Source: Gemmatimonadota bacterium
GTDB lineage: Bacteria > Gemmatimonadota > Gemmatimonadetes > Longimicrobiales > Gaopeijiaceae
DNA: 58,935 nt
Direction: 5' to 3'
NCBI GenBank assembly: GCA_007122885.1
Contig: SKSR01000132.1
Coordinates: 1-58,935, forward strand
Shown here: piece after piece, positions 27,072 through 50,504 of the stretch
Layout of the letters: the number at the start of each line of letters is the position of its first letter
Numbering within the stretch: position 1 is the stretch's first letter
The notes under the pieces: model-generated
Seen by the model: the letters and a program-made list of their open reading frames with translations, nothing else
What the model was told of the DNA's origin: nothing
Database searches by the model: none
Program-made: the position numbers and the translations under genes

Positions 27072-27923
27072 ATGCCCCTCCGCGCCCGGAGCTGTCGTCC
27101 GGGCCGGGAAGTCGGCCATCTGGACGGAGGGTGGACCATCCCCGAAACGCTCATCTCCAACCCGTTTCCGGCCCTTGTCCACCGGGAGTGGGCCGAGCGC
27201 CTTCCTTGGCTCGTGCAGGGTACGACCCTCGCCTCCCAGGGCCATTCGGAGAAGGGACGGAACGGAAAGCCTTGGGACCTGGCGCTCTTCGGTAAGAGCT
27301 CAGGGGAACGGGCCCTGGGCGCCTGGGTCCGTCTCATGGAGGGTCTGGAGATCACCCGGGCCGCCCATGCCCGGCAGGTGCACGCTTCCGCGGTTCTTCT
27401 CCACGAACCCGGCCCTCCGGGGATGCATGTCCACCCGGGAGCGGACGGTCACGCCACCCGCCACCCGGATCTCCTCCTGACCATCTCCCTGGCCGATTGC
27501 ATCCCCGCCTTCGTCGTGGAGCCGGAACGCAGGATCGTGCTGCTCCTTCACTGCGGATGGAGGGGGGTGGCGGCAGGAATCGTGGAGGCGGGCCTTCTCC
27601 TCCTGGAGGACAGACTGGCGGTGGCCCGCGGCGACCTTCATGTTCATCTCGGGCCGGGCGTCTGCGGAGAATGCTACGAAGTGGGGCCGGAGGTGCATGA
27701 AGCCCTGGGTGAGCCGGTATCGACAGGTCCGCGTCCCATTGCTCTTCCCGAGATCGTCCGGAACCGCTTCCTGGAGGGAGGGGTTTCCGAGGCCAGGGTC
27801 AGCGTGTCCAGGACCTGCACCCTGTGTAGCGATCTCCCCCTCTTTTCCCATCGAGGTGGGGACGGGGGTCGCCACGTGGCCTACCTGGCGGTCCGGCGGG
27901 ACGCCGCCGGCCGGTATCCGTGA
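27072..27923 (+). CDS. pgeF: YfiH/PgeF-family (DUF152, laccase-domain) protein
   Basis: QVHASAVLL, ADCIPAFVV, LLHCGWRGVAAGI, GPGVCGECYEVG and CTLCSDLPLFSHRGG motifs characteristic of YfiH/PgeF. Confidence 0.8.
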   Translation: MPLRARSCRPGREVGHLDGGWTIPETLISNPFPALVHREWAERLPWLVQGTTLASQGHSEKGRNGKPWDLALFGKSSGERALGAWVRLMEGLEITRAAHARQVHASAVLLHEPGPPGMHVHPGADGHATRHPDLLLTISLADCIPAFVVEPERRIVLLLHCGWRGVAAGIVEAGLLLLEDRLAVARGDLHVHLGPGVCGECYEVGPEVHEALGEPVSTGPRPIALPEIVRNRFLEGGVSEARVSVSRTCTLCSDLPLFSHRGGDGGRHVAYLAVRRDAAGRYP

Positions 27924-28174
27924 GATCCGGGAGGGGCTTTCGTCCGGAGGCGGGAGGTGTGCCGGCGGGCCTCTGCGGGCGATGTGGCCACAGCAGGGTG
28001 ATCCGGACCCGCAAGGGATCGGTCTTTCGTTTTTGCCGGAAGTCCGAGCAGGACCCGGGGTATCCCCGCTACCCGCCCTTGCCCGTGTTGGCGTGCCGGG
28101 GCTTCGAGGAGGAAGGCGGTAGCGGGGTTGAAGACGGTACCCACGAATTTCCCAATGAGGAGGACAGCGAATGA
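27920..28174 (+). CDS. Small Cys-rich (4-Cys, zinc-ribbon-like) protein of unknown function
   Basis: LCGRCGHSRVIRTRKGSVFRFCRKSEQDPGYPRYPPLPVLACRGF. I recognise this pattern from conserved hypothetical proteins but cannot name the family. GTGA overlap with the pgeF stop and ATGA overlap with the osmC-like start. Confidence 0.5.
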   Translation: MRSGRGFRPEAGGVPAGLCGRCGHSRVIRTRKGSVFRFCRKSEQDPGYPRYPPLPVLACRGFEEEGGSGVEDGTHEFPNEEDSE

Positions 28175-28638
28175 GCAAGCCGTTCTACGAAGCCAAGGCC
28201 CGGATCGAGAAGGTGGAGGGAGTCCACCGCCGGGCCACGCTGGAAGCCGGTGCCACCGTCGAGTTCGGTGTACATGGGGCCATCAAGGAGCACTTTCGGC
28301 TGACGGACGCTGAGGATCTCCCCCTCCCCGTCGACTACGTGGTGGCGGCTACCGGTGCGTGACTACTAGGAACACTCAACGGCGCACTGGAGGTGCGCGA
28401 GATCAAGCTGGACCCTTCGGCCATCACCGCCGAAGTCACCGGTATCAACGAGGTTCGGGAGAAGATCCCGGTTCTCACCGAAGTCCGTATCCACTACACG
28501 CTCCGGATCCCGGCCGGCTCGCGAGAGACGGTGGATCGGGCGTTGAGTCGCCATGTGGAGAAGTGTCCCACGGCCCAGACCTTGAAGGGGGCTGTGGAGG
28601 TGAGCTGGACCGCCGACATCCAGGAGGAAGGAAGCTGA
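28171..28638 (+). CDS. OsmC/YhfA-like peroxiredoxin-fold protein with in-frame TGA (28360-28362), candidate selenocysteine codon
   Basis: ORFs 28171-28362 and 28393-28638 share a frame and are separated only by this TGA. The joined 155-aa product reads ...PLPVDYVVAATGA[TGA]LLGTLNGAL...VDRALSRHVEKCPTAQTL. The TGA sits where the family has its first conserved Cys, and the second Cys (CP motif) is present. GAGGAGG lies 7 nt before ATG 28171. Confidence 0.65.
28375..28401 (+). promoter_or_regulatory. Candidate bacterial SECIS-like hairpin
   Basis: Upper stem 28382-28387 GCGCAC pairs with 28393-28398 GUGCGC, apical loop UGGAG (28388-28392). Possible lower stem 28375-28377 CUC with 28399-28401 GAG and a 4-nt bulge. 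The upper stem starts 19 nt after the UGA. Confidence 0.4.
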
Positions 28639-48849: not shown

Positions 48850-49055
48850 CCGACCGCGATGGCGCCCTGGCGGTCGGTGATCCGGCCGTAGGCGGGGACA
48901 GCTTCGGTCGAGTAGTCGGGACGGCCGGGTTCGGGCCGGCGGCTGCTGATGGTATAAAACATGTCTTCATAGGCACTTATGCTCGTCACTGTGGAAAGTG
49001 TCTGACAAAGTCAAAGGGTAGGCTCGGGTCTTAGGCAGGAATCCTCCCGAAGGGG

Positions 49056-49376
49056 ATGGGACGCGAGGGGCAAGTCCCCGTGGACGCTGAGGCCCTCCGG
49101 CAGATCTTCGAGTCCTTCTTTACTACCAAGAACGACGAAGAGCCGACCGGCCTGCGGCTTGCCATCGCCTATGGCATCGTCCAGCACGGCGACGGCGAGC
49201 TCGATGTGGAGAACGTTCCCGGCAGCGGCCCGACCTTCCGGATCGACCTTCCCCGAGCCGATCCGGAGCCCGATCCGGCGTGGGAGCACGCAAGAGCCCG
49301 CGCCCGGAAGGCCCGTCCGGAGGCGCGGCCCCCTTGGGCCGTCGCCTCGGTAGTGTATCCGGGCTCGCCTCCTTGA
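49056..49376 (+). pseudogene. 5-prime-truncated histidine kinase fragment (C-terminal part of HATPase_c only)
   Basis: Only EALRQIFESFFTTKNDEEPTGLRLAIAYGIVQHGDGELDVENVPGSGPTFRIDLP (F-box and a degenerate G2 box) is present. No H-box, N-box or G1 box upstream; an in-frame TAG lies just upstream. Confidence 0.55.
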
Positions 49377-49397
49377 GGGCCGTGGCCCCGCTGGGGA

Positions 49398-50504
49398 ATG
49401 TGGCGTCTCCCCCATTCGTTCCCGGAATCGACTCCTTCGTTCCCCTTGGTACGCATCCGTTCCTGTTCGAGGGCGCGGTGCTCGGCCCCTCCCTATCGTT
49501 CCAATGTTTCCGGCGAGTGGATGGAGGCCCGGGTCGTGTACGGGCCGGACGCGCTCGACGTGGGGATGCGGATGCACGACACCGAACCGCGCGTGATCTC
49601 CGCGCGGCTCACCCGGAGGGACGCCTGGTCGAACTTCTCGGACTGGGCGATGGTGATCGTCGACAGCCGATTCGACCGGCGATCCGCCTTCGGCTTGGCT
49701 GTGAATCCATTGGGGGTTCAGCGCGACAATTACTTCTTCGCCGACGGCCGCCAGGGCTTGTCCTGGGTGGTTGTGTGGGGGGCGGTCTCCTCCGTGGAAG
49801 TCCACTTCGGCCCCTCATTCGCCCGCAATGTGAACCACCGGCAGTTCGTGACCGCGTTCGAGGACCCCGGGGCCGCCACCACCTTCGGCCGACGGATCGT
49901 CTTCGGGGATCTGGACCAGACCACGGTTGCCGCCAACCTGCGAGTGAACTGGACCTTCACCCCCAACCTCTCGCTGGAGCTGTTCGCGCAGCCCTACGCA
50001 TCCGCAGGATCGTACTCACGGCTCAAGGAGTTCACCACCCCGAGAGCGCTGGAGTTTGCCGTATGCGGATCCGACCGCGGGATGTTCTGCCGCCTCCCGG
50101 GAGTCTACGCGATCCATCCGACCGCGGCGGTGGCCTGCCCGGCGGGGACCGGGAATGAGATGCAGGGGGCCGGGCTCCACCCCCTGGGCCATCCCGACTT
50201 CACCTTCCGCTCACTTCGCGGCAACGCGGTTCTCCGCTGGGAGTATCGCCCCGGCTCCACCCTTTTCGCCGTCTGGCAACAGGACCGCTCCGCAAGCGCC
50301 GCCTTCGGTGACCTCGCGTGGAGCCGGGACGCCGGTGACTTCCTGCGCCAGCCTGGACGACACGTACTGATGCTGAAGGGGAGCTACTGGTTGGGGCGAT
50401 CGGCCCCCACCCGTCATTGGCTCCAGGGGAAGGTTGAAATGCCCATTCTCCTGCCCGGACACCTTCCGGGGCACACGGTGTACCGTGTTTCAGCGCGTCC
50501 ATGA
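49398..50504 (+). pseudogene. Internally deleted, N-terminally truncated CBM9/DUF5916-family paralog
   Basis: Retains a CBM9-like piece (EARVVYGPDALDVGMRMHD...DWAMVIVDSRFDRRSAFGLAVNPLGVQRDN) and the family C-terminus (NLRVNWTFTPNLSLELFAQPYASAGSY...LRGNAVLRWEYRPGSTLFAVWQQDRS...MLKGSYWLG). It lacks the signal peptide and several hundred residues present in the 783-aa paralog at 55292-57643. It remains in frame, so it may still be expressed from ATG 49521. Confidence 0.55.

Follow-up and report, generated by a model that had tools for sequence, protein, structure and literature searches.

An OsmC-family gene with an in-frame UGA at the conserved cysteine codon, predicted to encode a selenoprotein, in Gemmatimonadota

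Contig SKSR01000132.1 of a Gemmatimonadota bacterium, a stretch of 58,935 nucleotides that was analysed over its whole length and is referred to here as the window, carries on its forward strand at 28171–28638 a gene of the OsmC family whose reading frame contains a single internal TGA. Read from ATG 28171, the frame comprises 63 codons, the TGA at 28360–28362 and a further 91 codons, 155 in all, and no other stop lies between the internal TGA and the terminal TGA at 28636–28638. We consider it very probable that 28171–28638 is one gene, encoding a protein of the OsmC/Ohr fold, and that UGA 28360–28362 specifies selenocysteine (Sec) at residue 64. The features on which this reading depends are the following, all on the plus strand.

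28157–28164, +: Shine-Dalgarno-like sequence GAGGAGGA, 6 nt 5' of the ATG, read from the sequence, putative in function
28171–28638, +: complete coding sequence of a predicted 155-residue OsmC-family selenoprotein, with ATG at 28171, UGA as codon 64 and the terminal TGA at 28636–28638
28360–28362, +: UGA predicted to be read as Sec (residue 64), in the alignment column that holds the peroxidatic Cys in OsmC/Ohr proteins, placed by homolog alignment and conservation
28382–28398, +: predicted bacterial selenocysteine insertion sequence (SECIS) hairpin, with stem 28382–28387 paired with 28393–28398 and apical loop UGGAG at 28388–28392
28564–28566, +: TGT codon of Cys132, the second (putatively resolving) Cys of the family, in the invariant KCPTA motif; C132-P133 is invariant in alignments A1 and A3

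The joined product reads ...PLPVDYVVAATGA-[UGA]-LLGTLNGALEVRE...VEKCPTAQTL..., with LLGTLNGAL following the UGA directly. An earlier note, made from the letters of this DNA, had described two open reading frames (ORFs) in one frame with one TGA between them, a joined length of 155 residues, the second family Cys and a hairpin downstream of the UGA, and each of these lies where the note had placed it.

With Cys written at the UGA for the purpose of scoring, the joined product matches the Pfam OsmC family PF02566 at 53.1 bits (cutoff 27.5; E = 4.5e-14), residues 50–146 aligning with profile positions 5–99 of 100. A single-protein phmmer search of the PDB sequences gave no match, and a match to the PDB came only with a family profile, which recovered Thermus thermophilus OsmC (1ukk) at E = 4e-5 and, more weakly, YhfA, Escherichia coli OsmC and Ohr. 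In the 1ukk profile alignment, column 64 coincides with the first conserved Cys (...AAHAGC...) and Cys132 with the second (...GCP...); the CP motif of 1nye also aligns with Cys132. The fold was approached through an AlphaFold2 model of a Cys-containing homolog (P0004) that is 61% identical to the window protein. This model (predicted local distance difference test score 96.2; predicted template modelling score, pTM, 0.88) superimposes on 2onf, 2egt, 1vla, 1ml8, 1nye and 1ukk with a probability of 1.00 and template modelling (TM) scores of 0.64–0.87, the best being 0.87 to Ta0195 (2onf), with 0.64–0.83 to TM0919, YhfA, OsmC and Ohr. Residue 64 falls within the long central helix of the model (53–75), and residue 132 lies between helices 118–131 and 133–138. 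On the evidence of this model, the window protein has the OsmC/Ohr fold.

A peroxidatic and a resolving Cys form the established catalytic pair of OsmC/Ohr enzymes. By analogy with that pair, the peroxidatic role would fall to Sec64 and the resolving role to Cys132, and the label "peroxidase" would be carried over to the window protein from its family membership.

A search of 5.8 billion proteins, of which the best 120 matches were considered, returned 29 full-length relatives, one partial sequence and 90 C-terminal fragments. The full-length relatives are 152–161 residues long and 53–64% identical to the joined product, and the column of the UGA is occupied by Cys in 28 of them. The proposal of the earlier note that the TGA stands at the conserved Cys position is therefore borne out by the homologs, and the 1ukk alignment agrees. 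The fragments, at least 90 in number and mostly from metagenome-assembled genomes (MAGs) of Gemmatimonadota, are 89–110 residues long, cover the C-terminal 57–59% of the query and are 66–76% identical to it. Among the best 120 matches there is no full-length record of a Sec form, and every Sec-form entry among the best matches is annotated as a truncated fragment.

The remaining full-length relative (P0003; locus L177, a 906-bp Logan contig from SRR34348099) is the only homolog with Gly at the Sec/Cys column, through a one-base variant, GGA. Its SECIS-type hairpin is still intact, with the loop UGGAG and a compensatory U·A pair, the latter a one-off change from C·G at the fourth stem position (pair 25/35 in the numbering given below). 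The GGA probably reflects either a single-base error of assembly or a mutation from TGA that happened very recently.

At the DNA level, the column was read in 80 species-representative genomes of the Genome Taxonomy Database (GTDB), in 80 metagenome contigs seeded with Cys forms and for six individual Cys-form proteins. All 87 copies from the window, eight contigs of protein P0031 (L001–L008) and 78 of the 80 GTDB species genomes have TGA, and even the scan seeded with Cys forms gave mostly TGA forms (78/80). The pooled loci comprise 167 with TGA, 8 with TGC and none with TAA or TAG. The TGA set is drawn from the window, ~79 species-level genomes and 78 metagenome contigs, at 58–73% protein identity. 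On a tree built without the hairpin codons, changes between TGA and TGC occurred about twice. Reconstructed orthologs are all 153–160 residues long and share the N-terminus M-[ST]-[ED]-P-[FI]-Y.

These data bear on the simplest alternative, that the gene is a pseudogene with a nonsense mutation or that the TGA is a sequencing or assembly error of TGC or TGT. Taken singly, the window does show an in-frame stop, and the GGA of L177 demonstrates that single-base changes or errors occur at this column. Two independent assemblies of the same organism, however, are 99.96–99.97% identical to the window over 18.7 kb and 3.1 kb, with single-nucleotide polymorphisms elsewhere and zero mismatches across the gene, and both retain the TGA, which effectively refutes the pseudogene and error explanations. 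Conservation of the TGA in all 167 TGA-form copies, across species at the protein identities given above, also speaks against them, as does the lack of further decay: the 50 codons preceding the UGA and the 85 following it contain no further stop in any of 149 distinct orthologs, and on either side of the UGA variability is greatest at third codon positions. The earlier note had named an error of TGC/TGT, and further disruptions in relatives, as what might undo its proposal, and neither was found. We regard this explanation as the least probable of all those considered, barely worth entertaining. Reassignment of the genetic code is likewise not indicated: TGA ends 23 of the 30 confident ORFs of the window, the OsmC gene itself included, and as the usual stop there it has not been reassigned.

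A second alternative takes the UGA as a true stop, followed by re-initiation at a TGAATG junction, so that a piece of 63 residues and another of ~90 residues would assemble into an OsmC-like fold. Gene callers do annotate two ORFs, as the earlier note had anticipated. In two loci (L178 and L179) the pieces are of 63 and 81 residues; in L001, a 62-residue ORF extends to the base preceding a 97-residue "OsmC" ORF, the junction being ...GGG TGA ATG CTG GGA.... Throughout the contigs inspected, the gene is divided into an orphan ORF of 62–63 residues and an "OsmC family protein" fragment of 81–97 residues, and the split affects this gene and its counterparts in well over a hundred related bacteria. 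Moreover, ATG directly follows the TGA in 137 of 148 distinct orthologs. Met also follows the Cys in the Cys forms (GC-MLGTL), however, and the ATG is therefore an ancestral residue rather than a start signal. The other 11 of the 148 orthologs have a non-initiating Leu codon at this place, among them the window (CTA), where the next possible start is a GTG inside the hairpin that lacks a ribosome-binding site. Translational coupling would also tolerate TAA or TAG, and none occurs at the column in 167 loci, even though the terminal stops of the same genes vary freely (TGA 100, TAG 37 and TAA 11 among distinct sequences). Finally, re-initiation would leave the covarying hairpin described below unexplained and would cost the protein its catalytic residue. 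We judge it highly improbable.

The hairpin is the second pillar of the Sec reading. Its stem begins 19 nt after the UGA, has 6 bp, to which RNAfold adds a seventh, U·G, pair, and places the loop 25 nt from the UGA. The first and last bases of the UGGAG loop can themselves pair, leaving a GGA triloop. The minimum free energy is −9.7 kcal/mol for 28382–28398 and −11.3 kcal/mol with one flanking base on each side (28381–28399). Published criteria for bacterial SECIS (bSECIS) elements specify a loop of 3–9 nt, a stem of 4–16 bp lying 16–37 nt from the UGA, a G in the first two loop positions and a minimum free energy of −7.5 kcal/mol or lower (PMC13188914), and the loop pattern in the model of Zhang and Gladyshev is N1-G-[G/U]-N-N2 with N1 and N2 pairable (as summarised in PMC13188914). 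With its loop pattern U-G-G-A-G/A, the hairpin at 28382–28398 agrees with all four published criteria, and together with the covariation this supports the SECIS assignment of the earlier note. Rfam returned no family at gathering thresholds in the window (1–58935); no general bacterial SECIS model was seen there from which a match could be expected.

Comparison across species gives the hairpin its weight. Counting from the T of the TGA as position 0, the stem consists of positions 22–27 paired with 33–38. In an alignment of 72 distinct sequences from different species (A2), 432 of 432 cells are paired, and shifting the partner by 1–3 columns as a control reduces pairing to 2–68%; RNAalifold predicts the same helix. 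Pair 26/34 (33/41 in A2 numbering) is A·U in 56 of the 72 sequences, G·C in 14 and G·U in 2, with no mismatch, so that 14 sequences carry a double change from A·U to G·C whose only intermediates are G·U. In the pooled set of 141 distinct sequences, all six pairs are present in 137 and a UGGAN loop in 134, and pair 22/38 is G·C in 101, G·U in 24 and C·G in 15; in the C·G flip, a Gly-to-Ala change is compensated by CGC becoming CGG. By Fitch parsimony on the tree lacking the hairpin codons, one of the two variable pairs changed state at least 27 times and the other at least 19 times.

The stem is read from codons of a conserved peptide, G-A-L-E-V-R, which raises the question of whether peptide and codon usage could produce it by themselves. 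Codon choice at the stem and loop departs strongly from that elsewhere in the same genes: GCA makes up 72% of Ala codons against 5%, GTG 99% of Val codons against 50%, and CTG, which supplies the loop G, 95% of Leu codons against 43%. From the peptide and codon usage, the six pairs together with the loop G would be expected with a probability of 0.04, and they were observed in 102 of 102 cases; peptide and normal codon usage therefore do not explain the hairpin. The Cys forms encode nearly the same peptide, keep the six pairs in 3 of 8 and have lost the loop GG through CTC in 6 of 8. On this comparative evidence, the hairpin is selected as a structure through synonymous sites and is tied to the UGA forms.

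Several observations weigh against the Sec reading. The hairpin is a short one whose folding energy does not stand out (z = +0.73 against shuffles, for a 71-nt fold in DNA of 67% GC), so the window by itself leaves room for chance, which the comparative evidence clearly removes. The Cys-form control comprises only eight DNAs, three of which keep a pairable stem. A subgroup with the peptide NGALAVR (six distinct sequences: L026, L042, L126, L133, L137 and L159) has a UCGCC loop in place of UGGAN; in most of its members the region at offsets +21 to +48 from the TGA folds into a longer hairpin (GGUGCAC...GUGCACC) with a small stem inside it, apparently a remodelled SECIS that occupies the same place. 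Selenium incorporation and peroxidase activity are predictions in every member of the clade. Lastly, selA, selB, selD and tRNA-Sec were not found in the 59-kb window or in ~2 Mb of flanks of 170+ loci, an absence that is uninformative for genomes spanning several Mb. Searched by tblastn with the E. coli proteins SelA, SelB and SelD, the window and all loci yielded matches to an N-terminal GTPase domain only; the SelB-like matches proved to be IF-2 rather than SelB. No tRNA-Sec turned up when the window and 45 loci were scanned for tRNAs, and ARAGORN found no tRNA gene of any kind in the window.

It is on these last points that a third alternative draws, namely that the UGA is read through without a Sec pathway, by a near-cognate Trp or Cys tRNA or a suppressor tRNA, with the small hairpin acting as a generic stimulator and the full-length product containing no selenium. 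Against it stands the position of the UGA, which replaces a redox Cys, a classic signature of Sec. The hairpin, too, fits the SelB-type consensus, with loop GG in 134 of 141 sequences and a spacing within 16–37 nt, and the nearest curated protein family is a selenoprotein family. Indirect support comes from relatives within the phylum: two Gemmatimonadetes MAGs, bin94 and bin43 (67–68% GC), each contain one SelA, one SelB and one SelD COG (Slaby et al. 2017). Read-through without selenium is in our estimation very unlikely, although less remote than either re-initiation or a pseudogene.

Under the preferred reading, that of UGA-directed Sec insertion, a ribosome arriving at UGA 28360–28362 would be met by a SelB·GTP·Sec-tRNA(Sec) complex bound to the hairpin 19 nt downstream, and Sec would be inserted there in place of termination. 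Translation would end at the second TGA (28636), which no such hairpin follows. Sec64, which takes the position of the peroxidatic Cys of OsmC/Ohr enzymes within the long central helix, would attack a hydroperoxide and be converted to a selenenic acid; Cys132 of the KCPTA motif would resolve this to a selenenylsulfide, and a dithiol donor would re-reduce the latter. Decoding by SelB and tRNA-Sec in this organism, the chemistry of peroxide reduction and the nature of the reductant are inferred.

Upstream of the OsmC gene, two further genes on the same strand complete a recurring arrangement.

27072–27923, +: Cu-oxidase_4 (YfiH-like) gene, the first of the three-gene arrangement (PF02578, E = 1.6e-37)
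27920–28174, +: small unannotated ORF of 84 residues with four conserved Cys, whose stop overlaps the OsmC start (ATGA)

The four-Cys ORF has no Pfam or NCBIfam match. By tblastn it recurs in 29 loci at 46–59% identity, and in the loci that were read it immediately precedes the start of the OsmC gene (for example L055, 9778–10005; L035, 9816–10001; L171, 498–635), with the core motif GLCxxCxHxRV[IV]xxR[RK]GSxFxLCxxSxxDPx[FY]PRYPxLPVxxCxG[YF]. It is probably co-transcribed with the OsmC gene, and its product may be a zinc ribbon or may serve the OsmC protein as a redox partner. A Cu-oxidase_4 gene precedes the OsmC gene in 24 loci, which include both Sec and Cys forms (the latter L171 and L173), and the recurring order Cu-oxidase_4, four-Cys ORF and OsmC suggests an operon. 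A scan for promoters and terminators between 26900 and 28900 found nothing. The largest clade of Cys forms (L169, L170 and L172) has a context different from that of the Sec forms, adjoining ctaA/ctaB and an aa3-type cytochrome c oxidase cluster, and has lost the loop GG.

Elsewhere in the window, a second candidate for a recoded gene, formed by 49035–49376 and 49377–50504 (+), continues in one frame across TGA 49374–49376 with high GC at third codon positions. It was rejected, as 49035–50504 consists of the C-terminus of a histidine kinase followed by a separate, unrelated gene. In a systematic scan for coding ORFs interrupted by TGA, the OsmC gene was the only credible case.

The clade belongs mainly to Gemmatimonadota, and some of its MAGs are labelled Acidobacteriota or Eisenbacteria. 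The Acidobacteriota-labelled loci (L012, L015, L024, L032, L045, L048, L063, L075 and L087) form a subgroup of their own (AAVGT-U-MLGTLNGALEVRQV), and the family may therefore span more than one phylum. One locus labelled Gammaproteobacteria (L082, VXNP01000066.1) has an OsmC segment nearly identical to that of MAGs of Candidatus Palauibacter obtained in the same study of sponges, and its label may be a binning error.

Recognition of the Sec codon would restore the predicted catalytic residue and correct at least 90 fragment records among the best 120 matches, and the conserved hairpin offers a specific pattern for finding further genes of this kind. It would also mark the Gemmatimonadota carriers as likely users of selenium with a predicted Sec-dependent antioxidant enzyme. 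Reviews describe selenoproteins as rarely kept in aerobic bacteria (PMC13188914). Both the mechanism and the type of family are standard among bacterial selenoproteins, and with OsmC-like selenoproteins catalogued since 2005 the locus opens no new question; what it usefully adds is the extent of the mis-annotation, a mainly aerobic phylum in which the Sec form predominates, and a clean case of covariation, in which a SECIS is kept by selection on synonymous sites inside a conserved peptide.

OsmC-like selenoproteins were predicted from the Sargasso Sea data in 2005 (three sequences, COG1765, motif UxxT; PMC1088965) and again from the Global Ocean Sampling data in 2008 (PMC2398784), so the earlier note is right that such proteins had been predicted in marine metagenome surveys. 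They are listed in reviews of 2022 and 2026 (PMC9312934, PMC13188914), as a family known from metagenomes and never biochemically tested (PMC1088965, PMC2398784, PMC9312934, PMC13188914). In the literature on selenoproteins of Gemmatimonadota or Gemmatimonadetes we found no report of the present clade and no paper that connects the clade or the phylum with this family, and the paper on Palauibacterales does not mention selenium. With this family (COG1765/YhfA type) the window protein shares the PF02566 fold, Sec in place of the N-proximal redox Cys and a bSECIS in the coding region downstream. The corresponding curated model, NF041052 ("OsmC_like_Se"), is the best NCBIfam match for the window protein and for the clade, but the scores place neither within it: the window protein reaches 33.6 bits against a curated cutoff of 95, the Cys homolog P0004 22.5 bits and ten reconstructed Sec-form orthologs 20.7–30.6 bits. 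Such scores may be why annotation pipelines truncate the gene in this clade. The motifs differ in detail as well. The published one is UxxT (PMC1088965, PMC2398784, PMC13188914), whereas the clade has U-[M/L]-L-G-T, in which Gly occupies +3 and Thr +4 (U-L-L-G-T in the window, U-M-L-G-T in most orthologs).

The OsmC/Ohr peroxidases of known structure (E. coli OsmC 1qwi/1nye, 1ukk, and Ohr 1n2f/6eb4) have the same fold, at TM scores of 0.64–0.72, and the same two-Cys layout, in which the first Cys lies on the central helix after P-x-[ED]-hydrophobic-AA-x-G and the second in a C-P motif ~68 residues later. The window protein differs in having Sec predicted at the peroxidatic position and in its sequence identity of 13–22% to them; it does not reach the thresholds of the curated OsmC, Ohr and SACOL1771 subfamily models, and its structurally nearest counterparts are the uncharacterised members of the YhfA/Ta0195 type. 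With the consensus bacterial SECIS, of which E. coli fdhF is the prototype, the hairpin shares a location within the coding region, immediately 3' of the UGA, and a GG loop. It is very compact, at 6–7 bp, lacks the bulged U of the fdhF type and differs from the consensus in being built wholly from codons of the G-A-L-E-V-R peptide.

The clade thus compared is apparently a distinct subfamily of the known OsmC-like selenoprotein type. The fuller proposition, which we advance tentatively and with somewhat more doubt than belief, is of a Sec-OsmC subfamily undescribed in the papers searched, possibly widespread in the largely aerobic Gemmatimonadota and present in some MAGs labelled Acidobacteriota or Eisenbacteria, with the Sec form far outnumbering the Cys form. 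It would often reside in a module with the YfiH-like and four-Cys genes, the mini-protein being possibly a redox partner, and it would have been missed by the NCBI model, with the Sec entries among the best matches annotated as fragments.

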